NCBI GenBank assembly: GCA_028281605.1
Contig: JANQJO010000060.1
Coordinates: 5-64,004 of the forward strand
DNA from: Pseudomonadales bacterium
GTDB lineage: Bacteria; Pseudomonadota; Gammaproteobacteria; Pseudomonadales; JANQJO01
DNA: 64,000 bases
Direction of reading: 5' to 3'
Under the pieces are notes generated by a model that searched no databases, was not told the DNA's origin, and saw only the letters and a program-made list of their open reading frames with translations. Shown here in pieces: positions 37,294-61,879 of this stretch. A program made the position numbers and the translations under genes. Position 1 is the first letter of the stretch, and each line of letters opens with the position of its first letter.

Positions 37294-37439
37294 GGTGCAG
37301 CCCTCTTCTTTAGGTTGGAGCAAACCAGGGTCACTGGGTACTGGAATATAAAGAGAGGGTTATTTTACTGTATTTTTATCAATCTACCTATACTTTTAAT
37401 ATATTCAATCAGTATTACGTGAAAATGGAGAGATTGATT

Positions 37440-37540
37440 AGGAACGTGCATGAAATAATTTTAGCATTTGTTGCTCCTGAACTCGCTTTGCTCAAACATG
37501 CATCTGCTCTAAATGTTAAAATTATTTTGTGCACGTTACT
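37440..37540 (+). repeat. 101-bp hairpin repeat, copy 2
   Basis: 30-bp arms with 4 mismatches, 3 of them G-T. Conserved centre TGCTCCTGAACTCGCTTTGCTCAAACATGCATCTGCTC. It ends on the first base of the usp stop codon. Confidence 0.85.
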
Positions 37541-38472
37541 CACTTTATGGGCGATTCAAATCCGCTTGGTTTAAGTGTGATGACCGATGAATCTATTAAA
37601 TGCAAAATAGACTCCGCAGTGTTTCCAATTAATAAGCCAGGGATTCCACTGCGTGCAACGGTGCCCATCACGACAACGTCAATTGTTTTCTTGCGCACAA
37701 AGATAGGTATATGATCGACTGGATTACCTTTAATCAAGTGGCTGTGTATCTTATGTCCCTCATAGCAGGCTATTAATTCATCGAGATGAGTGCGATTGGC
37801 TTGTTCTTCTTCTTTTAATAGTGTGGTAAGTTTGTTTTCTGAAATTTTTAAAAAAGCACTGTAGCGCATGGCATTTTCAGAATATAGAGACCAGCAGGAT
37901 AATACATGTAATTCGCTATTTTCCCATTTTGCTAAGGATGTGGCTAAATCCATAATGAGTGCATTCAATGCTTTTCCTTCTTCATAACTGTCTAAGCCTA
38001 GGTCAACAGCTGCCAAAATTTTTTGAGAGTGACCCTGATCTTTTGATCTGAGCAACCATACAGGTTGAGGGCATTTACGCATCAAGTGAAAGTCACTGCT
38101 GTCAAAACTATCGGGATGATCATTGGCTACCTTGATCAGCAGATCATGTTTTTCCAAAATGACTTGACGTACGATTTCAATGAAATCCCGCCCGATTGCG
38201 ACTTTTACATTGACGTGAATCGTGTTACCCAGCTGTTCAGTAATTTTCTCAAGGACTTCCTCTCTTTGGGTGACTAGCATTGTGATCAGTTCCTCTGGCT
38301 TTATGATGCCTTTATACTCTGAGATTGTTTCTTTCGGAGGGCTAATTACATCCATAAGTGTCAGACGTGCATTGTTTTTTTTCGCGAGTGCCACACCTCG
38401 GGCAAGTGCTGGATTGTTTTCTGGATGCTCGTCATCACTGACAATGATTAAGATATTTTTAAAGCGTTGCAT
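37540..38472 (-). CDS. tandem-domain universal stress protein (UspE-like)
   Basis: Two USP domains, the second ending VVMGTVARSGIPGLLIGNTAE. ATG at 38472 lies after AGGAG. Confidence 0.8.
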   Translation of the reverse strand: MQRFKNILIIVSDDEHPENNPALARGVALAKKNNARLTLMDVISPPKETISEYKGIIKPEELITMLVTQREEVLEKITEQLGNTIHVNVKVAIGRDFIEIVRQVILEKHDLLIKVANDHPDSFDSSDFHLMRKCPQPVWLLRSKDQGHSQKILAAVDLGLDSYEEGKALNALIMDLATSLAKWENSELHVLSCWSLYSENAMRYSAFLKISENKLTTLLKEEEQANRTHLDELIACYEGHKIHSHLIKGNPVDHIPIFVRKKTIDVVVMGTVARSGIPGLLIGNTAESILHLIDSSVITLKPSGFESPIK

Positions 38473-50679: not shown

Positions 50680-51819
50680 TTACTTTTTCTCTGCTTCATT
50701 AATGACCCATTGATAATCGCCAACAGTTGTATGCAAGGTTGTGAGTGTTTTTTCTGTCATGCGTCTTTTTCTGATATTTAAAACAATATTAATGGCTTGG
50801 TGTAACATGTATGGAATGATATTTTGCTCCACAGGATCTCCCATGCGTAACCCGGGTCCCTTTTGTATTTCTGTCATAAAAGGTTGTAAATTTTCATCTA
50901 CCAGAAAATCAGCTCCATATACACCAAAGCAATCGCCTTGTTTGGGGTAATCTTGCAGTAATCTGGATTTACCTGCTTGGACAACGTGGGCTATGTATTG
51001 ACGAATCTTTGGCATCAACTGGTTTTGGCAAAACCCAAGTTCTGTTATGTTGGCTTCGTAAAGGTATTGATCGAGTTCGCTATAAGACCATTTATAACGT
51101 AGTGATGAATCAAATTCTGGATGCATTTTTTGTTGGTAATAATTAGTCATGTGTACCAAAGGGTTATCGAAGTCTTCATTTTTATAGGGCATTGCGGTTA
51201 ATCGTACTTTTCCTTGTGGGTAGAGCAATACCAGAAGTGGATCAATGCTGGCCAGTAACCAATAAACGCGAATGTCGAACTTTCTGTTGTGTATTAATAA
51301 AGGATTTTTAAGATAACGTTGAATCACCCGGTTTGCATCGTCATCATAATGACCCGGTGGGTAGAAATTGTTTGCTGCCAGCTGTCGGGTTTGCCAAAGA
51401 ATTTGGATGCCACGACCACGAGAATTGCCGCCAGGTTTGTAAATCCATGTGTTTTCTGGATCTTCTGTTTGAGGTTGTTGCTGCATAAAAGCATGTTGTT
51501 CTTTAGTATCATTCAAACAGTATGTTTCAGGAAAAAAGTCGTGCATGGAAATGCTTTTATCGGTGCTATAGATGTGATTCTTCTCATAGTGTTTGAGCGC
51601 TTCAGTGATGTGTCCTTTATTGGTGAGAATATTTTCATGAATAAAATGATTGAGTAGTTGAAAGGGTTGTAATGATTTTGCGTATTGTTTGGATTCCTTT
51701 CTGACCCATAATAAGTCAGCTTTTTCTGCACTACTTACCAAGTCAAAATCATAGTGAGTAAATATTCGAATGGCATTTTTAGAGCGTTTATCGGTGAAAA
51801 TTTTACTCTGTGGGTTCAT
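50680..51819 (-). CDS. tubulin-tyrosine-ligase-like (TTL family) ATP-grasp protein
   Basis: TTL-type blocks: QLLNHF..LTNK, WIYKPGGNSRGRGIQIL, RVIQRYLKNPLLIHNRKFDIRVYWLL, CFGVYGADFLVDENLQPFMTEIQKGPGL. ATG at 51819 lies after AAGGAC. Confidence 0.8.
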   Translation of the reverse strand: MNPQSKIFTDKRSKNAIRIFTHYDFDLVSSAEKADLLWVRKESKQYAKSLQPFQLLNHFIHENILTNKGHITEALKHYEKNHIYSTDKSISMHDFFPETYCLNDTKEQHAFMQQQPQTEDPENTWIYKPGGNSRGRGIQILWQTRQLAANNFYPPGHYDDDANRVIQRYLKNPLLIHNRKFDIRVYWLLASIDPLLVLLYPQGKVRLTAMPYKNEDFDNPLVHMTNYYQQKMHPEFDSSLRYKWSYSELDQYLYEANITELGFCQNQLMPKIRQYIAHVVQAGKSRLLQDYPKQGDCFGVYGADFLVDENLQPFMTEIQKGPGLRMGDPVEQNIIPYMLHQAINIVLNIRKRRMTEKTLTTLHTTVGDYQWVINEAEKK

Positions 51820-51910
51820 AATGTCCTTTAAGATATAAATAGATAGCAAGCAGAATACTAATAATAGATGCGAGAAAACCTATTAGTTGTAGAAAATCAT
51901 TCAATTTCTG

Positions 51911-52489
51911 CTAGCTCCTTGCCCGAGAAATCTGAAGAATTATGCAGATTGCGCCTACAACCAATGCAATGACTGTGGATTTGAGAACTATTAGGCCAAC
52001 AATTGAGATTATGCTACCTAAATACATGGGATGCCTAATAAATGAATATATTCCCGATGATACAAAATATTTTGCTTGAGGCGTTATGCTAAAGGCAGTT
52101 CTCAGATTGGCAAGCGAGAAAAGCGAAATTGTAATTCCTATTCCTAATACAATTAATGGCACTCCGATGTAAGTTGCTAGAATATCAGCTGCTGGTAGCA
52201 ATAGAAATGGTAGAAAGGAACCAAAAAGCGCAATAACATTTGGAAAAAACTCTAAAAATCTTCGTTTTATTGGGCCTGATAGCAGAAGAATAATTGCTGC
52301 TAGCAAAAAGTAAACAGCTGTTATCCCGTTATTAATTAGCGCATTAACAATGATAAAGGTTCCATCAACGCCCTTGACCTTTTGAAGGGTAGAAAAGCCT
52401 TCTTGGAGATTGGAAAGATAGTAAATTGAGGTACAGCTTAATATCGAGCTGATTAAATACGACTCGTATTTAAAAAATCTATTTAGCAC
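51911..52489 (-). CDS. isoprenylcysteine carboxyl methyltransferase (ICMT/Ste14/PEMT) family membrane protein
   Basis: Polytopic protein with C-terminal GIYSFIRHPMYLGSIISIVGL. GTG start after AAGGAC. Confidence 0.72.
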   Translation of the reverse strand: MLNRFFKYESYLISSILSCTSIYYLSNLQEGFSTLQKVKGVDGTFIIVNALINNGITAVYFLLAAIILLLSGPIKRRFLEFFPNVIALFGSFLPFLLLPAADILATYIGVPLIVLGIGITISLFSLANLRTAFSITPQAKYFVSSGIYSFIRHPMYLGSIISIVGLIVLKSTVIALVVGAICIILQISRARS

Positions 52490-53385: not shown

Positions 53386-53790
53386 TTATGAGTTTCCAAT
53401 ATCTTGCTCTTCGGCATATTGAGCATATAGTAAATCAGCAAAATCCTGCTCATCAAGCTCATTAAGAACTAAGTCTCTAACCGCATCTGCAAGCAGTTCG
53501 TTATCACAGATTAGCTCATAATCATTTAGCGACAGATACTCTAACGCTACTGCAAGCCCTGTTCGCTTATTAGCATCTGGTAATGCGTGAGCAATAGCTA
53601 TACAAGATGCATATTTTGCAGCTATCTCGAAGACATCATTTAGACTTGAGTAAACAATCGCATTATCAATCCTTCCAAGTGCGCTTTGTAATTTGCCGAC
53701 ATCAACGGAGCCCTTCATCCCGGGTTCATGTTCTAAAATAAATGCGTTAATCTCAATGACTCTTTCAAATGGAAATTGAATCACATCCAT
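53386..53790 (-). CDS. doc: Fic/Doc-family toxin (death-on-curing)
   Basis: Fic motif variant HALPDANKRTG. Size is 134 aa. Confidence 0.85.
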   Translation of the reverse strand: MDVIQFPFERVIEINAFILEHEPGMKGSVDVGKLQSALGRIDNAIVYSSLNDVFEIAAKYASCIAIAHALPDANKRTGLAVALEYLSLNDYELICDNELLADAVRDLVLNELDEQDFADLLYAQYAEEQDIGNS

Positions 53791-53960
53791 TACATATCTG
53801 CCAATTTTTCAAATGTTTTTTTGTGCGTTCTTAATGCAAGCTTAGTTTCAGATTTTACAATTTGTTGCCCATGCACTCCAGATAAGTCTAACTTTTTATT
53901 TGCAGCAATCTTCGGCCTTTTTACTGCTTTTACGCCATATTTTTCAATTTTTTTGTTCAT
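53790..53960 (-). CDS. unannotated 56-aa ORF, putative Doc antitoxin
   Basis: MNKKIEKYGVKAVKRPKIAANKKLDLSGVHGQQIVKSETKLALRTHKKTFEKLADM. Its TAA overlaps the doc ATG (ATGTAATGG). It is below the ORF-track size cutoff. Confidence 0.5.
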   Translation of the reverse strand: MNKKIEKYGVKAVKRPKIAANKKLDLSGVHGQQIVKSETKLALRTHKKTFEKLADM

Positions 53961-54039
53961 ATCGACTCACTTAATTACAAATCACTTACATCTTGAACTA
54001 AAATTGCACATACTTACAATACTACCTAACACCTTCTTA

Positions 54040-54222
54040 CTAATCGTCTTCGCGCCACATTCTGCTATATAGAACATGCGTTAATGATACGAAAATTACC
54101 CCTAACGCAAGGATAAGCACTATGCTGATTATGGAAATCTCGTTTATCGAATATAGCCAATATAGAAAAGCAGCCAGGATGAGTATGAAAATTGAGCTAA
54201 TAGTGATTGATCGAAGGTTCAT
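54040..54222 (-). CDS. small two-TM membrane protein (possible immunity protein)
   Basis: MNLRSITISSIFILILAAFLYWLY..IISIVLILALGVIFVSL. Lies immediately downstream of the glycine-rich peptide gene. Confidence 0.45.
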   Translation of the reverse strand: MNLRSITISSIFILILAAFLYWLYSINEISIISIVLILALGVIFVSLTHVLYSRMWREDD

Positions 54223-54224
54223 CG

Positions 54225-54442
54225 CTACTTCCAAAAAGAGTCAAAAGCGACTTCTGCGCCGATGGCTAACATGAGACCACCCACAAACACACCGATACCA
54301 ACATAAACAGGAGCCCCTGGGCCACAGGCAAAACCTGCTGTAGCACCACCCGCCACAGAACCTAGCAAACTGCCACACTAAATGCTGCGCCTTCCATACC
54401 AGCTAGTGCAGATTGCAAATCTAGCATTTCATTACTTTCCAT
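54225..54442 (-). pseudogene. glycine-rich hydrophobic peptide gene (class II bacteriocin/microcin-like) split by a -1 frame change
   Basis: GGAG then ATG at 54442 gives MESNEMLDLQSALAGMEGAAFSVAVC, stopping at 54362. The -1 frame continues GSLLGSVAGGATAGFACGPGAPVYVGIGVFVGGLMLAIGAEVAFDSFWK. Confidence 0.4.
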
Positions 54443-54470
54443 TTATGACTCCTTTGTTTTTGGCATTTAG

Positions 54471-54548
54471 GTATAACGCCGCAATCACGGGTGCCATAAC
54501 CAGAGCGAAGCGGCGGTTATGGCATCCCTGTGTATTGCTTTGTTATGC
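54471..54548 (-). repeat. attC site (conserved family)
   Basis: GTATAAC...GTTATGC with paired arms GCCATAACC and GGTTATGGC. About 80-85% identical to the sites at 57308 and 60769. Confidence 0.8.
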
Positions 54549-54601
54549 TTTTCGCCGTATAATTGTACATAAGATCTGTACAAGTCATTATAAGGTGTAA
54601 T

Positions 54602-54832
54602 ATGGAAAATGTAAATATAACCGAACTTAGGGCTAACTTATTAAAATACTTAAAAAAAGCTCAATCAGGAGAGCAAATATTAATCACTTCCGGAGGGCAG
54701 GTGCTTGCAACTCTTGTGGCACCGATTGACCTTCGTAGGTCCTCCAAAAGAAAATTGAAACAGCTATCAAAAGCAGCCATTTTAAGAGATGTAATATCGC
54801 CTACTGAAGAAACATGGAACGCTGCTCAATGA
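54602..54832 (+). CDS. Phd/YefM-family antitoxin
   Basis: MENVNITELRANLLKYLKKAQSGEQILITSGGQVLATLV. Confidence 0.8.
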   Translation: MENVNITELRANLLKYLKKAQSGEQILITSGGQVLATLVAPIDLRRSSKRKLKQLSKAAILRDVISPTEETWNAAQ

Positions 54833-55224
54833 TACTACTTGATACATGCACCATAGTTTGGGACGCTTTGTCACCTAAAGATATAACTTCAAAAGCAAGG
54901 ACCACAATTGAAAACGCCGATAAAGAGAACTCCCTTTTAGTTTGTGATATTTCTTTTTGGGAAATATCAATGCTTATAAAACGCGGAAGAATAGAAATTG
55001 AGACTAATGCAACGGAATTAATTAATCTCTACCTATCATCAAGAAATATTCAAGTACAAAACATATCACCTGAAATTGCCGAGCTTTCCGTAAACTTAGG
55101 TGCGGAAATTAATAAAGATCCGGCCGATCGTCTAATATCCGCAACTTCGATTATTAGGAATGCAAGACTCGTAACTGCAGATGAAAATCTACGAAATGCT
55201 GAAATCCTTGATACCATTTGGTAA
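54829..55224 (+). CDS. vapC: PIN-domain toxin VapC
   Basis: MILLDTCTIVW..., ...DPADRLISATS..LVTADENL. ATGA overlap with the antitoxin. This is the only cassette oriented on the + strand. Confidence 0.85.
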   Translation: MILLDTCTIVWDALSPKDITSKARTTIENADKENSLLVCDISFWEISMLIKRGRIEIETNATELINLYLSSRNIQVQNISPEIAELSVNLGAEINKDPADRLISATSIIRNARLVTADENLRNAEILDTIW

Positions 55225-55327
55225 GCATAACGCCCGGCTCAGCGAGCAAATTTTGCTGGCAGTGGTTTTGCCGCACAGCGCAAAAGCGGTGACAGTAAAA
55301 TTTGTCCGTTGCAGCCGTTTGTTAGTC
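55225..55327 (-). repeat. attC site
   Basis: GCATAAC...GTTAGTC. It starts directly after the vapC stop. Confidence 0.7.
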
Positions 55328-55413
55328 CAAAACTCGCTCAATGTCTCTACTTAGAGATACGAAAACCTCTTCTGCCTCTTGTTTCTTCAATTTCGATAGT
55401 GGCTTATTAGGAG

Positions 55414-55548
55414 AATTAACCGCTTGAAAAACTCCACGTCGCGTTCACCCGCACCTAAAGTGGAGCACCTTTTGTGTTAAAGTGAAGCGAAGCGGAACAC
55501 ACAAAAGGCGCGGAGCTTTGGGTGTCGGCGTGCAGCGCTTTGTTAGCT
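55414..55548 (-). repeat. attC site (long, 135 bp)
   Basis: AATTAAC...GTTAGCT with inner paired blocks GCACCTTTTGTGTT and AACACACAAAAGGCGC. Confidence 0.6.
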
Positions 55549-55770
55549 TTGGCCTGGTAAAGAACCGTATTCTTTTTTAAATTCAATTTTTATATATTCT
55601 AGGAGCCCTTCAAGATTCTGCTGATCTGTATAAAGGTCAGCCATAACATCTTCATCGGTGGAATCTGGATCAGTTGATTCTATTTCTTTTAACCTTGATG
55701 TAATAGATTCGATAATCAAAGCCCAATCACCCATTGTCATTGGAATAGATAAGCTATCTAGTTTATTCAT
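55543..55770 (-). CDS. acidic 75-aa protein, Tsi2-like putative immunity protein
   Basis: Helical acidic protein ending ..EYGSLPGQS. Size, charge and position after the toxin resemble Tsi2 as I remember it. Its stop lies inside the attC. Confidence 0.5.
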   Translation of the reverse strand: MNKLDSLSIPMTMGDWALIIESITSRLKEIESTDPDSTDEDVMADLYTDQQNLEGLLEYIKIEFKKEYGSLPGQS

Positions 55771-55780
55771 TCTTTTCTCC

Positions 55781-56158
55781 TTAACTAACTTTTTTGCAGT
55801 AAACTGCTAATTCTTGTAACAACCCGAGATACTTTGTAAAAGGCATATTTGAAACTGGCGCGATCATGAAGTGATTAGCTCTGCCGGGGCGCAGGTCTTT
55901 TACCAACCGGAGTCCTGTTGGAATAGGCGTATTTCTCGCCAACTTCCAAGTATTGCGTTTATTTGGATCAAATGTTGATGAAAGAGAAACACCATTGCCA
56001 TTTGCAACTACTATTTCAATTCCATTTACCTTGTTAACCGCCACATCTTTAAATGCCCTTACATGATCGAGACGGGGCTGAGAGGAATTCCCAAATCGGT
56101 AAAGGTCAAGCAAAATGAAATCTGCTTCTTCAATGTACAAAAATTCCGGTCTTATCAT
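55781..56158 (-). CDS. Tse2-like putative toxin (125 aa)
   Basis: NGNGVSLSS...W.L...TPIPTGLRLVKD....ANHFMIAPVSNMPF..YLGLLQEL parallels the C-terminal half of P. aeruginosa Tse2 (..GGTSVF..IPDGTDIPPDLKV.QD...ATHYTIMPAKPM..), recalled from memory. Confidence 0.5.
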   Translation of the reverse strand: MIRPEFLYIEEADFILLDLYRFGNSSQPRLDHVRAFKDVAVNKVNGIEIVVANGNGVSLSSTFDPNKRNTWKLARNTPIPTGLRLVKDLRPGRANHFMIAPVSNMPFTKYLGLLQELAVYCKKVS

Positions 56159-56180
56159 TTCTTCTTCCTATATGTTTGAA

Positions 56181-56297
56181 TTAAAAGCTAACATAACGAC
56201 AAATTCCTATACCACTCTCTTGCTGTTCATAAAACTCTCGCCCACTAACCATATCTCCCACAGCTTCTTCTAATACTACTACATCTTCAATCTTCAT
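56181..56297 (-). pseudogene. RelE/ParE-family toxin gene truncated to 38 codons at a bare GTTAGC core site
   Basis: MKIEDVVVLEEAVGDMVSGREFYEQQESGIGICRYVSF stop. ATGA overlap with the upstream antitoxin. GCTAAC lies at 56187-56192 on the + strand. Confidence 0.5.
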
Positions 56298-56500
56298 GAC
56301 TTATAATACTCGCGAAGTTTATCAAGAGGTATAAAATTAGCCTCACCACTCTCGATTTTTCTTTTACGAACAGCTAATACATCAGTATGCCAATCAGGGG
56401 AGCTTATCTCAGAATCTTCATTTATCAAAGAACCCCACAGAGCCTCCATGGTTCTCAGCTTTTCTACAACACTCATATTTTCTATCTCACTGTTTTTCAT
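56294..56500 (-). CDS. addiction-module antitoxin component (TIGR02574/Unstab_antitox-like)
   Basis: MSVVEKLRTMEALWGSL....WHTDVLAVRKRKIESGEANFIP. Confidence 0.7.
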   Translation of the reverse strand: MKNSEIENMSVVEKLRTMEALWGSLINEDSEISSPDWHTDVLAVRKRKIESGEANFIPLDKLREYYKS

Positions 56501-56533
56501 ATCTAGTTTCTCCTAATTCTGATTTTTGCGTGA

Positions 56534-56658
56534 TGCTAACGCCCTAATAACTGGCCCAAAAAACCTTCCAGAGCCTACCCAAGAACTCCGTACTATCAGC
56601 AACCCCATTCTCAAAAGAACCCAAGGTTTTTTGGGTCCAGTTCATTAGTTGGTTATAT
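56534..56658 (-). repeat. attC site
   Basis: TGCTAAC...GTTATAT with arms CTGGCCCAAAAAACC and GGTTTTTTGGGTCCAG. Confidence 0.65.
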
Positions 56659-56730
56659 GGCACGGCCTCTTCTATCCAACTGCCTATTACTTATCAGTTT
56701 AGACAGACTATCAGAAGCCCCGAATAAAAA

Positions 56731-57079
56731 TTAAGCACCATCGCCTCCGCCTCGCAACAACTCAATCACAGCTACACGAACCTGCTCTAACTTCTCCTTT
56801 GTCACATCACCTACAATACGCTGAAACAACGATTGATTTGCTGTAAACAAATTTTCCAGGCCTAACATAACTCACTCTTTTCAAGCTACCTGACTGAAGA
56901 TCTACATCACTTACTTCTATTGCCGATGTATCAGAGTAAGGGTTACTGGTAATTTGTACACAAACCCAATCCCCACGACCAGAACATGCTAGAACCAGAG
57001 CCGGCCTTAACTTTGAAGCCGACAAATCAGAAAATGGAAAAGGAACCAGCACCACCGCACCTATTGAAGGTGTGACCAT
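56731..57079 (-). pseudogene. mazF: MazF/PemK-family toxin gene with a frameshift near 56850-56862
   Basis: The N-terminal part, VVLVPFPFSDLSASKLRPALVL...VRPGK, runs into a stop at 56807. Another frame continues ENLFTANQSLFQRIVGDVTKEKLEQVRVAVIELLRGG to the stop at 56731. Confidence 0.7.
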
Positions 57080-57270
57080 GCCTCATCCTCCTCTGGCTTT
57101 AACCAATCTGTTGATAAACTAGACTCAGACAGCAATGCTGTCTCAAGTGCTTCAAGCGGTGGCTCTTCAAGAATAGTGACCAATGCACGACGTACACCTT
57201 TCACTTTAAGTGGCTCCGCTAAATGAATCTGGCCTTTTTCATCAACCGTAGCTTCCACTGTACGTATCAT
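57061..57270 (-). CDS. small antitoxin-like protein upstream of mazF
   Basis: MIRTVEATVDEKGQIHLAEPLKVKGVRRALVTILEE. ATG at 57270 lies 8 nt after GAGGA. It overlaps the mazF start. Confidence 0.65.
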   Translation of the reverse strand: MIRTVEATVDEKGQIHLAEPLKVKGVRRALVTILEEPPLEALETALLSESSLSTDWLKPEEDEAWSHLQ

Positions 57271-57307
57271 TTTCAAATCCTCACTATATTTTCACTACTC
57301 AGATGCC

Positions 57308-57384
57308 TTATAACGCCGCTATCACAGGTGCCATAGCCGTAGCGAAGCGGAGGTTATGGCATCCTGTGGATAGCTTTGTTAGGC
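57308..57384 (-). repeat. attC site (conserved family)
   Basis: TTATAAC...GTTAGGC. The stop codon of the 57379 ORF lies inside it. Confidence 0.8.
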
Positions 57385-57606
57385 CATTCCTTTTTTCAAT
57401 ATTCCTTGGTCCAACTCAAGGGTATAGGACAGTATCGTATCAAGATTAATCCTATCTGATGCTTTGAGTATTTCTATTCCTACAAGTTTTCCGTCATTAG
57501 TGGTATCAATATTGATGCCTTCTGTTATTTCTATGGCACCCTCTGGTTCTTGATCACTTAGTTTTAAATACAAAGCATCAACTTCTTCATCATAATGTAC
57601 TTTCAT
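57379..57606 (-). CDS. DUF2283-family protein (putative antitoxin)
   Basis: MKVHYDEEVDALYLKLSD...DGKLVGIEILKAS. Confidence 0.7.
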   Translation of the reverse strand: MKVHYDEEVDALYLKLSDQEPEGAIEITEGINIDTTNDGKLVGIEILKASDRINLDTILSYTLELDQGILKKGMA

Positions 57607-57829
57607 TTTTTCTTCCTTTTTTCAGGGGGTAATTTGTAATCACAGTAATGGTATCACTTTCAACAGACATAACTACCTTTAAAGGATATTGAAAACCAGA
57701 TACCTCTCTTATAATTTCGTGTTCTCCATCCGCCAGATCTAAAGTACTTAATATATCTTCAATAGTAGATTGACTAATTTTATAAAGCTTTGCTCTTCTT
57801 TTTGCATGTCTTGAAAATTTTATTATCAC
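57590..57829 (-). CDS. DUF4258-family protein (putative toxin)
   Basis: (M)IIKFSRHAKRRAKLYKISQSTIEDIL. GTG start. It overlaps the DUF2283 gene by 17 nt. Confidence 0.65.
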   Translation of the reverse strand: MIIKFSRHAKRRAKLYKISQSTIEDILSTLDLADGEHEIIREVSGFQYPLKVVMSVESDTITVITNYPLKKGRKNESTL

Positions 57830-57874
57830 TTTACCTTATCTCTTAAATAGAGTTGTATCTTTGGAACTTTCTCG

Positions 57875-57952
57875 GCCTAACGCCCGCCACAACGGCGCGA
57901 GCTTGCGAGCGTCCGGCAGCCGAAGGCTGCGAATTGCTGGCGTTTGTTATAC
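57875..57952 (-). repeat. attC site
   Basis: GCCTAAC...GTTATAC. The stop codon of the TIR-like gene lies inside it. Confidence 0.75.
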
Positions 57953-58810
57953 GTGGGCATCACTTCTGAAGCCATCCATGTAATAAATATCATTGTGGCT
58001 CCACTTATCGATACCGTACACCTTGACTCCAGTGGCCACGATGAGAGATATCGAACTAGCTCCATGTAAGGGAGGTATGACGACATCCCTATCTACGAAA
58101 TATACGTCATGATCTCGAATTTTTACCTCTTTTAGATAGCTTTCCTTTGCACCATCTTCCCAAGCCTTAATTTCCGCTGGTGTTGCTGGCTTAGCAAAGG
58201 AAAAGAAATGGTGCTTTATAGATTCTAGAAGAGACTGAGATTGTTCGTTCGCCCTTTGAATATCATGATTCATACTCCAGATTTTTGATTGCGCATTGTG
58301 TAATTGCTGCCTTAATATTTCTGCTTCGCTGGTAGTTTCTCTTTTATTTTTTGATGCTTCTAACTTTTTAACGGACTGCTTTATTTTTGCACAACTTCCA
58401 GTTACTGCATCAGTTAAGTCAAGGTCTTGATCATCGTAGAAAGATGCGGTCACTCCGGCCAAATCTGTTGGTAAACGGAATGTGGTTCCAGCCGACTTAG
58501 GAACAAGAATAAAGCACTTTTCTAAACCAAGAGCACCAATGAACATACCCAGCTCTAGGACTACGTTGTCCCTAACAGAGCTGTACTCTTTTTCTCGTAT
58601 TAGAGTTTTATCGTCCGCATGGAAAACAAAAACCGCGTAATCAGCCTCTTTCGTTTTACCAATGAGAGTCGTAATAGCGATGGAAGACAAGTCGAAAGCA
58701 TTTTCCCAGAGCTTTACTCTCATTTCTTGCTCAAGCTTAATATGTACAGCTTCGGCAACTGATATAGCTTCAGATGAGGATGCTATAAATACTGATGGCT
58801 TATCACTCAT
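57947..58810 (-). CDS. TIR-like (COG4271/PF10137, Cap12/Pycsar-effector type) domain protein with coiled coil and unknown C-terminal domain, 287 aa
   Basis: KPSVFIASSSEAISVAEAVHIKLEQ..DYAVFVFHADD..RDNVVLELGMFIGALGLEKCFILVP..LPTDLAGVT. ATG at 58810 chosen, because the track TTG at 58909 lies inside the attC. Confidence 0.7.
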   Translation of the reverse strand: MSDKPSVFIASSSEAISVAEAVHIKLEQEMRVKLWENAFDLSSIAITTLIGKTKEADYAVFVFHADDKTLIREKEYSSVRDNVVLELGMFIGALGLEKCFILVPKSAGTTFRLPTDLAGVTASFYDDQDLDLTDAVTGSCAKIKQSVKKLEASKNKRETTSEAEILRQQLHNAQSKIWSMNHDIQRANEQSQSLLESIKHHFFSFAKPATPAEIKAWEDGAKESYLKEVKIRDHDVYFVDRDVVIPPLHGASSISLIVATGVKVYGIDKWSHNDIYYMDGFRSDAHV

Positions 58811-58836
58811 ATTTGTTTCCTTGCACGAATTTAAGC

Positions 58837-58908
58837 GTATAACGCTAAGCTCACCGGCGCTGATGTAGCGTAGCGGAATCGGCGTCCGAGTGCAGCGAAT
58901 TGTTAGCA
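58837..58908 (-). repeat. attC site
   Basis: GTATAAC...GTTAGCA. Confidence 0.75.
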
Positions 58909-59057
58909 ATATTATTGGGTTTTCGACGAACTAACCGATCGCCTACCTGAGTCTGATGGGTTTGATAGTCTTTACATATGGCATCAAGATCATAATTAAA
59001 TTGCTTGGAATGTTCGTCTCGGTAATATCTAATTTCTTCTACAATGGGATCTTTCAT
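58851..59057 (-). CDS. small protein downstream of the PIN gene (68 aa, C-terminus runs into attC)
   Basis: MKDPIVEEIRYYRDEHSKQFNYDLDAICKDYQ.... ATGA overlap with the PIN gene stop. Confidence 0.5.
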   Translation of the reverse strand: MKDPIVEEIRYYRDEHSKQFNYDLDAICKDYQTHQTQVGDRLVRRKPNNIANNSLHSDADSATLHQRR

Positions 59058-59530
59058 ACTTCATCTCCTAAGAACTCTTCTGGTGAACATATTTCTGGAC
59101 ATATCCAACCCCGACTTTCTATTATTTGCCTTATTTTCTTTCTTGTAAATGGGTTGTTTATGTGCTTGAAATTCCAAGTTACAATGACGTCCATTCCATT
59201 GGCTGCTGCAACTGCAATGTGTAGTGCGTCTTCAGGGCACTTTTCGGGAATTGCCTTATCAGTAAGTAACTGTTTAGCAAGTTCTTTTATTTCATCATCG
59301 ATTGCTAGCACCTGAAATTCGTCCAGCATTTCACGACGAAGTTTTGCTTGGACTTCATCGCCTTTTGATGCTTCTTGAATAACGATATCTGAAATAAATA
59401 CGCTATAGTCATTAAGATGATTCCAGAAATCCTGTGTAGATGCCTGATGAGCTGCAACTACAATGTTTTTCGATGGTCTTGCCACCAAATAACTAACAAC
59501 ACTGGTTTCTATGTATATATTTTGTCCCAT
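59054..59530 (-). CDS. PIN-domain protein (VapC-like)
   Basis: IYIETSVVSYL, ..ISDIVIQEA.., PEDALHIAVAAANGMDVIVTWNFKHI. Confidence 0.78.
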   Translation of the reverse strand: MGQNIYIETSVVSYLVARPSKNIVVAAHQASTQDFWNHLNDYSVFISDIVIQEASKGDEVQAKLRREMLDEFQVLAIDDEIKELAKQLLTDKAIPEKCPEDALHIAVAAANGMDVIVTWNFKHINNPFTRKKIRQIIESRGWICPEICSPEEFLGDEV

Positions 59531-59561
59531 TTGTTTATCGACTCAATGTAATTATTAGTGC

Positions 59562-60728
59562 TTATCTTGGCTCCGGTTTTTCAAATATGAAACGTGCTGA
59601 AAAAGGGCCTCGCCTGATTACCGGAGCACTTCCAAACAATGTAAAGTTCCATGGTTGTTCTATAAAACCTACTTCTGTAAATTTCTCAATCAACAGTTCC
59701 GCTGGCATATAAGAGTATGAAAAGGGCATACTTTCTCTTCGATTCAGAACATAATGCCCCCAATAGTCTTCTAGAGCTAGAACCTCAGCTTGTTCCTCAC
59801 AAGAAAGATCTAGATAATCGTTACTTATCGAAAAACAATCTTTTTTCCAAGGGCCATCAGGCCATATATCAGCAAATTCAAATCTTCTACTTACCTCGGT
59901 AAGCATCTGTCTATAAGTAAGGTGTGGAACGTCTCCATCACTATCCGTCGGTGCTTTGTGGTTACTCAAAAAGCCTTCTATAATGATTGCTACTCCACCA
60001 GGACGAAGAATTCTAAATATATTAACTATTTGTTTTTCCATTTGCCCTCGAGTCATGTGGTGAAGGCACCACTTTGTTACCACAACATCCCTAGAGTTGT
60101 CTTCTATGGGAACTTGAGAGGGGGTAGGTTGTATTCTATAATCTAACCGATCCTTATACTTTTCATCAGCTTCATGCCAATCATGAACATCAGTACCAAT
60201 AACTGTTACATCTTTTGAACCATATTGTGCATTCTGTAAATTTTCTATCCAGTTTAGATATGAAGCTTTGTCTGATACATTGTGAAAGTAGTCTAAAATT
60301 GCCTTGCCTAATTTATTTCTTCCAGCGCCTATATCGGCGATATCTAAGTACTGGTGTTCAGGGTGAATATAAAATAAGGGCTTTATTAATTTTAAATCCG
60401 AAGCATACAAAGCAATTTCGTTATAACTGTCTTCTACCGCTATATGATCGGCTAAATGATTTCCATGAGGTAACATTTCTTTCCAAAACTCCTCACACAC
60501 CTGATCAAGATCGTCGTCAATTCTATTTAGAATAAATTCAACTTCTCTTTGAGCCTTTTCGAGTGGGGAAATCTTTTTAGAGAAATATGTGAAGTAACTT
60601 GGTATGTTTGGCAGACGATAGTAGTCACTCAATATATCGGTTCGGTAGCGATGAGCTAACATCCTAATAAAGAGATTGGATACTTTATCATTTCTCAAAA
60701 TTTCTAAAGGGTTGCTTATGTTCCACAT
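59562..60728 (-). CDS. class I SAM-dependent methyltransferase-fold protein with unknown N- and C-terminal regions (388 aa)
   Basis: Motif I LDIADIGAGRNKLG, post-I VTVIGTDV, motif II DVVVTKWCLHHM, motif III LRPGGVAIIIEGF. No DPPY/NPPY-type DNA methyltransferase motif seen. Confidence 0.65.
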   Translation of the reverse strand: MWNISNPLEILRNDKVSNLFIRMLAHRYRTDILSDYYRLPNIPSYFTYFSKKISPLEKAQREVEFILNRIDDDLDQVCEEFWKEMLPHGNHLADHIAVEDSYNEIALYASDLKLIKPLFYIHPEHQYLDIADIGAGRNKLGKAILDYFHNVSDKASYLNWIENLQNAQYGSKDVTVIGTDVHDWHEADEKYKDRLDYRIQPTPSQVPIEDNSRDVVVTKWCLHHMTRGQMEKQIVNIFRILRPGGVAIIIEGFLSNHKAPTDSDGDVPHLTYRQMLTEVSRRFEFADIWPDGPWKKDCFSISNDYLDLSCEEQAEVLALEDYWGHYVLNRRESMPFSYSYMPAELLIEKFTEVGFIEQPWNFTLFGSAPVIRRGPFSARFIFEKPEPR

Positions 60729-60768
60729 ATTTATCGACCTTTAATTAGTACGAGAAATCGGCTTTGGG

Positions 60769-60845
60769 TGCTAACGCCGCCATCACAGGTGCCATAACCA
60801 AGGCGAAGCGACGGTTATGGTATCCTGTGGATGGCATTGTTAGCA
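60769..60845 (-). repeat. attC site (conserved family)
   Basis: TGCTAAC...GTTAGCA. The 354-aa ORF stops inside it at 60815. Confidence 0.8.
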
Positions 60846-61879
60846 TTTACCCGATAATTCATAACCTGACGATAATGCAGGCATTTGGTACTCTCTTCCT
60901 CTAAGAACACTTGATTTTCCACGTCAGGAAAACATTGCACAACACCTCGATGTCTAAATATCTCATCAGACAATGGATATCTAGCAAAAGGGTTATGGTA
61001 AACTTGTAAGCCATCCGTCAAACTTTCTTCGTGTTGATTTCTGGAACGAATTCGCTTTTCAGGTTTCCCATTCGGATCTGTTGCCCAGATTGAATATATT
61101 TCGGTGTGCACATCAGCATTGTCAACTATCGCGTTCAGTTTACCCCACGTAGCAGTACAACTAAATATAATCGCGCTTATTTGAGATAAAGAGTCATCCA
61201 TAAATATTCCTAGTGGAATCTCTGCTCCATTGTCTTTCTCTATAAAACCAAGTTCTTTAGCCGGAGGGCCTTCAGGATATCGTTCGGGATTTTTTAAATA
61301 TTCATCCTCATCGACATAGTAATCATACAATAGTGCCTTTATGGGTCGGTTGTATTGAAGATTGAACCCAGGTTGTTCAAATGGAGCGACAGCTATAACA
61401 AAAGCTTTATTTTTTACATGGTTTAACCTTGAGTATTTCTCATCATAAATTCTACATTTACTCAAAATACTATTTGATAAACGGATAATTGATTCCTTAT
61501 TCAGCTCATTAAATGAGATATCTTTGAGTTCTTCCTTTGTTAACATTCGATCCCATTCATTTGGTTTTAATTGTGCTGAATTGGCAGTAACGGCCTCAAC
61601 CAGAAATTGCTGATTTTTTAACTCCATACAAAAATCAGGTGAAGTATTTTTCCAATCAAAAATGGCTCCATATTCTTTGAAAACTGCATACAAGTATATT
61701 TCCCAAAAACACGAGTTGAATGTTTCTTGAAACTGTCTTACAAATTTACCATCTCGATCAGGAAACCCATCTGCCCACTCAATAAATTTGTTTCTTTCAG
61801 GCTCTTTCCAAGTAGCCAATACAGACTTGAAATTCTTGTGCTGCTTAGCAGTGTCAATTACAGGGTCAAAAAGCTTCAC
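60815..61879 (-). CDS. uncharacterised 354-aa cassette protein (possible PD-(D/E)xK-like N-terminal core)
   Basis: GTG start after GGAGG. FWEIYLYAVFKEYG ... SPDFCMELKNQQFLVEAVTAN is loosely nuclease-fold-like. Nothing else recognised. Confidence 0.55.
   Translation of the reverse strand: MKLFDPVIDTAKQHKNFKSVLATWKEPERNKFIEWADGFPDRDGKFVRQFQETFNSCFWEIYLYAVFKEYGAIFDWKNTSPDFCMELKNQQFLVEAVTANSAQLKPNEWDRMLTKEELKDISFNELNKESIIRLSNSILSKCRIYDEKYSRLNHVKNKAFVIAVAPFEQPGFNLQYNRPIKALLYDYYVDEDEYLKNPERYPEGPPAKELGFIEKDNGAEIPLGIFMDDSLSQISAIIFSCTATWGKLNAIVDNADVHTEIYSIWATDPNGKPEKRIRSRNQHEESLTDGLQVYHNPFARYPLSDEIFRHRGVVQCFPDVENQVFLEEESTKCLHYRQVMNYRVNANNAIHRIP

Follow-up and report, generated by a model that had tools for sequence, protein, structure and literature searches.

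The subject of this study is a gene on the reverse strand of a 64,000-nucleotide stretch of DNA from a Pseudomonadales bacterium (assembly GCA_028281605.1, contig JANQJO010000060.1, positions 5 to 64,004), referred to below as the window. The gene (57947-58810) runs from an ATG at 58810 to a TAA stop codon at 57949-57947 and encodes a protein of 287 amino acids (aa), in which a TIR domain is followed by a helical stalk and a candidate sensor domain. The mechanically longest open reading frame (ORF) has 320 aa and opens at a TTG at 58909, inside an upstream attC site. The ATG at 58810 is nevertheless the correct start, because its Met is common to the homologues (35 of 35 aligned sequences share the same Met in a Met-Ser-x-Lys-Pro N-terminus) and because the ribosome binding site region is conserved in Marinomonas sp. 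TW1. The Shine-Dalgarno-like sequence AAGGAAAC (58815-58822, reverse strand) ends 4 nt 5' of this ATG, and the Marinomonas copy carries a matching AAGGAAAT at the equivalent position. A first-pass annotation made from the sequence alone had chosen the same ATG and the same 287-aa product, with a sequence pointed out just upstream and the TTG lying within the attC, and the homologues bear this out. Comparison of the gene with three homologues gave dN values of 0.06-0.11 at saturated dS. Hence, the gene is genuine and kept under strong purifying selection.

The gene is the only cargo of an integron cassette. Its 5' boundary is the R' core GTTATAC (58843-58837) of the upstream attC (58836-58913, reverse strand), which closes the preceding PIN-toxin cassette and was supported by the repeat families D2 and D3 and by nhmmer (E 9e-15). 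The cassette's own attC (57875-57952, reverse strand) was likewise found as a member of the repeat family and by nhmmer, and has a homologous counterpart behind the Marinomonas TW1 gene. Its inverse core GTATAAC (57952-57946) overlaps the TAA stop codon and its R' core GTTAGGC is located at 57881-57875. Six co-oriented attC sites, including both sites flanking the TIR gene, are spread across 54469-60848; they were detected with an nhmmer profile built from these six sites, since strict pattern-based finders missed real sites. The strongest evidence for a mobile unit comes from the Marinomonas sp. TW1 locus, which shows 77% nucleotide similarity from 58843 to 57891 and breaks off at both ends. 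This span is therefore the cassette, with the attC included. The folding z-scores of the attC strands were not significant, and the case for the sites thus rests on the repeat family and this homology break. Taken together, one promoterless ORF, its own attC, the attC of the preceding cassette and the common orientation of the array characterize an integron gene cassette, and the single-gene cassette bounded by attC sites that had been proposed on first reading was confirmed. No IntI-like ORF was found in the window by tblastn with an approximate IntI1 query; from the orientation of the array, intI is expected beyond 64000.

The TIR domain (residues ~5-135; 58406-58798, reverse strand) belongs to the type found in Cap12 and PycTIR, as the first reading had suggested, and searches with profiles and with the predicted fold agreed on this. 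Pfam family PF10137 matched residues 7-126 (E 1.3e-25; 90.1 bits, the gathering score being 24.7; positions 2-118 of the 119 in the profile). In PADLOC, the TIR effector models of the cyclic oligonucleotide-based anti-phage signalling system (CBASS) matched with E ~1e-38 (6e-39) and the PycTIR model with 1.8e-29. The best sequence matches in the PDB were PycTIR (8jsj, E 1.6e-18) and SfSTING (7un8, E 6.7e-18), and a Foldseek search with the AlphaFold2 (AF2) model placed the TIR-STING structures 9lmq and 7un8 first (E 3e-9, probability 1.0, ~149 columns), followed by SARM1 and plant TIRs, as expected for a TIR/flavodoxin-like fold. In SfSTING, the pocket for nicotinamide adenine dinucleotide (NAD+) is formed by F6, S10, W33, F37, L47, R78, N80 and the catalytic E84, and D110 is donated in trans by the neighbour in the filament (PMC9402430). 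In the HMMER alignment F8, S12, W35, F39, L49, R80, N82, E86 and D116 of the cassette protein correspond to these residues. Eight of the nine positions are invariant among the 35 homologues; for L49 the conservation is 90% or more. E86 is thus the predicted catalytic Glu, whose presence had been put forward as a check of the assignment, and D116 the predicted trans-acting residue. With the NAD pocket conserved, the enzyme looks intact. By analogy, its activity probably depends on TIR-TIR packing as well, and the conservation of all pocket residues including the trans Asp, as in SfSTING, makes an oligomerisation-driven packing of the TIR domains the likely mode of activation.

The stalk (residues ~137-205; 58196-58402, reverse strand) consists in the AF2 model of two helices, 137-154 and 162-205, and gave only weak matches to coiled-coil-type Pfam families; as a helical stalk, it bears out the segment of about 60-70 aa that had been predicted as a coiled coil. 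The linker around residues 150-165 varies among the homologues. A QSxxW motif at residues 174-178 is conserved and also occurs in the DUF4062-headed relatives described below. The C-terminal candidate sensor domain of ~85 aa (residues ~206-287; 57950-58195, reverse strand) follows as a compact unit in the AF2 model and is marked by the motifs AKPATPxEIxxW, PPLxGAxSIxxIV and SHNxIYYMDGFR. Modelled alone, the C-terminal 90 residues are compact, with a predicted local distance difference test score (pLDDT) of 89 and a predicted template modelling score (pTM) of 0.81. The domain had no match in Pfam, among PDB sequences or, by Foldseek, among PDB structures (best E 2.4). The first-pass annotation had been unable to place it and had called it novel. 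It is indeed unannotated, and to that extent the call stands; it is not unique, however, because 172 clusters that carry the domain, phage proteins and proteins with other NADase heads among them, were retrieved from 1.84 billion representatives with a profile built on residues 196-287. These profile matches make it a member of a broad family.

Most of the 172 clusters represent small proteins of ~140 aa, in which a charged N-terminal helix precedes the domain. Versions anchored by an N-terminal membrane helix and versions with two or three tandem copies of the domain also occur (P0127, P0133, P0136, P0138). An alignment with hhalign gave a probability of 99.8% that the C-terminal domain and the small stand-alone family are homologous. 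Where the contexts of the small relatives were readable, they are phage or phage-like. Streptomyces phage Coruscant encodes a 96-aa copy of the domain (HUN41_00204; L091, 3001-3291) among small genes of unknown function, which matched by sequence as well as by fold (BFVD, template modelling score 0.70). This gene and the homologues at L090 (3359-3805) and L099 (8001-8414), the latter encoding 137 aa, are phage-encoded, 96-148 aa in length and located among early or accessory small genes. On an IMG/VR contig the stand-alone gene lies near a terminase gene, on a metagenomic contig it adjoins Rad52-type, HTH_3 and PD-(D/E)XK genes, and on two short contigs it is found amid tightly packed small genes. 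The small family is absent from PHROGs and Pfam and is rare in phages, Coruscant being the only hit among 50,697 phage records; a single-sequence search with the small protein P0140 matched only itself.

A second group of relatives carries the stalk together with the domain. Residues ~160-285 (57956-58333, reverse strand) were delimited by BLASTP matches to P0129, a protein with a DUF4062 head (residues 168-285, E 9e-22), and to P0132 (residues 158-285, E 3e-19), whose head matched the PADLOC TIR-TM model (E 6e-48). DUF4062-headed carriers comprise P0129, P0131, P0134, P0142, P0164, P0181, P0219 and P0280; they originate from Vibrio, Aeromonas and Pseudomonas and have a helix with a QSxLW motif in front of the domain. 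One of their genes, in V. parahaemolyticus, is located at the edge of a phage-like region. The domain was fused to an AAA_35 ATPase in a single case (P0238). As judged from these alignments, stalk and C-terminal domain are a swappable module used by PF10137 TIR, DUF4062 and TIR-TM-type heads. Such sharing among NADase heads is a pattern typical of immune sensors. In P0134 (363 aa), the DUF4062-stalk-sensor arrangement is extended by a C-terminal DUF3606 (PF12244, E 1.7e-12), which also matched the PADLOC candidate PDC-M03B.

Over their full length, more than 200 proteins of ~287 aa are 55-90% identical to the cassette protein. Their hosts are Marinomonas, Marinobacter, Psychrobacter, Acinetobacter, Enterobacter, Klebsiella, Vibrio, Photobacterium, Aliivibrio, Pseudomonas, Kangiella and Sulfurimonas, and remoter full-length members occur in Salinisphaerales and Arcicella. 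The Marinomonas sp. TW1 homologue is the same cassette in an integron array, and that of V. parahaemolyticus is part of a chromosomal integron with a typical array of small co-oriented genes. The Kangiella gene is located 4.5 kb from Gabija gajA (E 1.5e-161), which is accompanied by a UvrD-like helicase, and in Acinetobacter an island with an integrase and Phage_CRI continues with the homologue and then, ~0.6 kb downstream, with McrBC. The Pseudomonas homologue adjoins a resolvase gene, with PIN_8 and AAA_15/21 genes at a distance of 4-6 kb, and the Enterobacter homologue adjoins icd amid unknown small genes. No known defence neighbours were seen in Litoribrevibacter and Salinisphaerales. Two members are plasmid-borne. 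In A. baumannii, the gene is found on a 7.7-kb plasmid beside RelBE. In K. pneumoniae, the full-length member WP_181469692.1 (37% identity, E 1e-70) is encoded at 82-948 of the 2,988-bp ColE1-type plasmid NZ_CP055457.1 (L101) and also on NZ_LR890214.1; a Rop protein and a helix-turn-helix-domain protein are the only other annotated genes of the 2,988-bp plasmid, and few natural carriers of a candidate immune gene may be smaller. Neither a conserved neighbour nor a cyclase, a cognate antitoxin or immunity gene or a ThsA-like effector was found in the six homologue contexts inspected. From these contexts it follows that the gene is autonomous, highly mobile and often, although not always, in the company of defence genes. 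Housekeeping surroundings of the homologues, which would have spoken against a role in defence, were not encountered, since the genes were located in integron arrays, on tiny plasmids, in prophage-like regions and near Gabija or McrBC rather than in housekeeping operons.

Among characterised systems, Cap12 of the SfSTING type (7UN8/9LMQ) is alike in its PF10137 TIR, in the order of an N-terminal TIR and a C-terminal sensor, and in the conservation of the NAD pocket and the trans Asp. In contrast, the C-terminal domain of the cassette protein is not a STING domain by sequence or fold, a helical stalk of ~65 residues is inserted, and there is no operon with a cGAS/DncV-like nucleotidyltransferase (CD-NTase). 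The NCBIfam Cap12 equivalogs aligned over positions 2-151 of 312 and reached 96 bits against a cutoff of 450. With no sequence or fold match to STING in the PDB and the Cap12 models confined to the TIR half, a STING identity of the C-terminal half was ruled out, and the protein therefore is not a TIR-STING. Among PDB sequences, PycTIR (8JSJ) came closest to the TIR domain. However, its own TIR is C-terminal, behind a cyclic-nucleotide-binding region, and works with a cyclase, whereas the cassette protein has the reverse order and no cyclase; the PADLOC PycTIR model matched via its TIR half only (positions 150-286 of 288).

The closest parallels in architecture are single-gene NADases with other heads. 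Swarozyc (KpSwz) is a one-gene protein composed of DUF4062, a stalk and an AUX domain, for which experiments have demonstrated an NADase that is activated by clustering on a phage (Bas14) portal, and Evangelion is a further DUF4062-headed one-gene NADase (bioRxiv 10.64898/2026.05.01.722283, 10.64898/2026.06.25.731849). They share with the cassette protein the succession of head, helical stalk and C-terminal auxiliary domain, the single gene and the location in mobile elements or defence islands, and sister DUF4062 proteins (P0129, P0280 and others) bear the very stalk and sensor module of the cassette protein. The heads differ, being DUF4062 (PF13271) in Swarozyc and Evangelion and PF10137 in the cassette protein, DUF4062 being confined to the sister proteins with the common C-terminal module. 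Furthermore, the AUX domain of Swarozyc, whose trigger is the portal, is described as a winged-helix domain, and a DUF4062 protein from an A. baumannii plasmid, whose C-terminus is winged-helix-like, did not match the sensor profile. Hence, the two are probably different domains in the same design. Identity of the sensor with AUX is also disfavoured by the origin of the top DUF4062-plus-sensor proteins, which come from Vibrio, Aeromonas and Pseudomonas and not from Klebsiella, KpSwz having been compared by its description. In Salmonella enterica (NZ_CP051374.1; L104, 2495-3838), a 447-aa DUF4062 protein is encoded between the genes for virion morphogenesis and those for the baseplate in a P2-like prophage region, a classic position of the P2 defence hotspot; its C-terminal region is unlike the cassette sensor.

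SpbK of Bacillus subtilis, a one-gene TIR abortive-infection NADase whose activity is induced when its TIR domains cluster on the SPbeta portal YonE (PMC12847820), has the same one-gene TIR layout and provides a precedent for clustering on a multimeric phage protein. The two proteins showed no relationship in sequence and differ in TIR subfamily as well as in the region outside the TIR. Thoeris differs in that the TIR protein ThsB is paired with a ThsA-type effector, whereas no partner of the cassette protein was seen in the inspected contexts.

The explanation that we favour, with moderate confidence, is that the cassette carries a self-contained, autoinhibited one-gene abortive-infection NADase. 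At rest, the stalk would hold the protein as a small autoinhibited oligomer. Upon infection, a phage-derived and probably multimeric protein would bind to the C-terminal domain, and this binding would cluster and re-pack the TIR domains in such a way that the D116 loop completes the E86 site of a neighbour, as in SfSTING filaments. Hydrolysis of NAD+ would then lead to growth stop or cell death before phage release. This explanation joins the observed domain layout, the conserved NAD pocket, the solitary gene, its mobile and defence-linked location, the purifying selection and the shared module with an NADase activity, an activation by oligomerisation, a protein trigger and an anti-phage phenotype that we infer. 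Several points weigh against it. PADLOC would not call the gene a system. The nearest characterised TIR relatives, Cap12 and PycTIR, are all activated by a nucleotide signal and not by a protein. A known defence gene was absent from about half of the inspected neighbourhoods, namely those of Litoribrevibacter and Salinisphaerales. No promoter-like site was found within the cassette, and expression therefore depends on the position in the array. Finally, the AF2 model of the full-length protein is of moderate quality (pLDDT 77.5, pTM 0.52) and fixes neither the geometry between the domains nor the oligomeric state.

The same relatives form the basis for a reading as an orphan second-messenger effector, in which the C-terminal domain would be a new nucleotide receptor that takes the role of a STING, SAVED, CARF or cyclic nucleotide-binding domain, and the TIR would respond to a cyclic nucleotide supplied in trans by a CBASS, Pycsar or type III CRISPR locus at another place in the genome. 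The order of an N-terminal TIR and a C-terminal sensor, as in TIR-STING, and the fact that the closest characterised TIRs (Cap12 TIR-STING and PycTIR) are signal-activated effectors would fit. The first-pass annotation had already noted the lack of a cyclase, a SAVED or a cyclic nucleotide-binding partner in the cassette, and our searches found none of these in the neighbouring cassettes of the array either; a cyclase was missing from the six homologue contexts as well. The model of the C-terminal domain matched no STING, SAVED or CARF-like fold in the PDB, the Cap12 equivalogs recognise the TIR half alone, and the small stand-alone or tandem phage proteins with the domain suit a protein-interaction module better than a nucleotide receptor. 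In addition, the gene can be the sole cargo of a 3-kb plasmid. We therefore consider an orphan effector improbable.

The company of the gene might instead point to an addiction or competition toxin, i.e. a TIR NADase that stabilises integrons and small plasmids or serves in conflict between bacteria. Toxin-antitoxin-like cassettes with PIN, Fic/Doc, Tse2-like and DUF2283-type genes lie on both sides, and members of the family are found on 3-kb and 7.7-kb plasmids, the latter beside RelBE. Against this, no cognate antitoxin or immunity gene is present in the cassette or conserved beside any homologue, and the 287-aa protein has neither a secretion signal nor a delivery domain. An elaborate, conserved sensor module that is common to phage-activated NADase heads speaks for a regulated trigger and not for a constitutive toxin, and we give this possibility little credence. 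Least probable in our view, with only a very slight chance of being correct, is a ThsB-like role, in which the TIR would sense phage and produce a cyclic ADP-ribose (cADPR)-type messenger for an effector encoded elsewhere. Thoeris TIRs act in this manner and SpbK also makes N1-cADPR (PMC12847820), but the characterised PF10137-type TIRs are terminal NAD+ hydrolases (PMC9402430), and neither a ThsA-like nor any other effector was linked to the gene in the inspected contexts. All three alternatives are less likely than the self-contained NADase, since a linked partner is never seen and the behaviour of the domain is that of a protein module.

The self-contained NADase may be given a further twist with regard to the origin of its sensor. 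Since the diversity of the domain lies mostly in small stand-alone or tandem proteins, several of them phage-encoded, the sensor might be a captured copy of a phage early protein, and the three kinds of NADase heads would have been plugged onto a phage-derived module. We regard this as unlikely on present evidence. If it applied, infection could be sensed by homotypic co-assembly with the phage homologue, in the manner of an integrated decoy of plant nucleotide-binding leucine-rich repeat receptors (NLRs), or via the binding target of the phage protein. Conversely, the phage copies could act as dominant-negative decoys and in this way poison the sensor.

One-gene TIR or TIR-like NADase sensors are already known, and the cassette protein is therefore a variant and not a new principle. 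The suggestion of an undescribed one-gene abortive-infection or defence protein thus keeps its place as a candidate, while the novelty of the concept was not upheld because SpbK, Swarozyc and Evangelion precede it. What appears to be new from sequence comparison is the combination of a PF10137 head with an unannotated, phage-related sensor module that is common to DUF4062 and TIR-TM heads. A full-text literature search gave no description of the 287-aa family; its coverage of papers on integron defence was partial, and a tested homologous cassette may be found there. The integron preprint of Darracq does not mention TIR. The protein is likely a new variant among one-gene anti-phage systems and not a stray component of CBASS or Pycsar. 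Provided that the phenotype holds, it would be a widespread one-gene NADase immune protein, missed by current defence finders, of Vibrio, Klebsiella, Acinetobacter, Enterobacter, Pseudomonas and marine gammaproteobacteria. The reuse of an unannotated ~85-aa sensor by three kinds of NADase heads would then represent a natural experiment in effector swapping. As this sensor is tied to phage early proteins of unknown function, it could expose a new trigger or a new type of phage counter-defence. The cassette would also show once more that immunity genes travel on integron arrays and even on 3-kb ColE1 plasmids.

The cassettes around the TIR gene (53386-60728) are mostly toxin-antitoxin-like. The PIN toxin of the preceding cassette (59054-59530) is accompanied by a 68-aa partner (58851-59057), and a gene for a methyltransferase-like protein of the S-adenosylmethionine-dependent type (388 aa) is located at 59562-60728. 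On the other side are a DUF2283 pair of 79 and 75 aa (57379-57829), a pair of 90 and 71 aa (56807-57276), a Tse2-like ADP-ribosyltransferase (55781-56158), a PIN gene on the opposite, forward strand (54814-55224) and a Fic/Doc gene (53386-53790). Two cassettes upstream of the TIR gene, a 354-aa protein is encoded at 60815-61879 (reverse strand). It had no match in Pfam; PADLOC identified it as a strong homologue of PD-T7-5, a defence system of one gene (E 5.8e-123), with a match to PD-T7-1 (3.6e-45) in addition. On the strength of this profile match it is a second defence cassette within the same array.

Two further observations concern other parts of the window. At the low-coordinate edge of the attC region, a protein of the tubulin-tyrosine-ligase family (389 aa, PF03133, E 2e-50) adjoins a PEMT/ICMT-type membrane methyltransferase of 192 aa (50680-52489, reverse strand), an unusual combination for a bacterium. 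Outside the integron, a near-perfect palindrome of ~103 nt with the arms GGAACGTGCATGAAATAA...TTATTTCATGCACGTTCC is present in two copies 35 kb apart (2044-2146 and 37439-37541). This element could be a repeat resembling repetitive extragenic palindromic (REP) sequences or MITEs (miniature transposable elements with inverted repeats), or a regulatory site.

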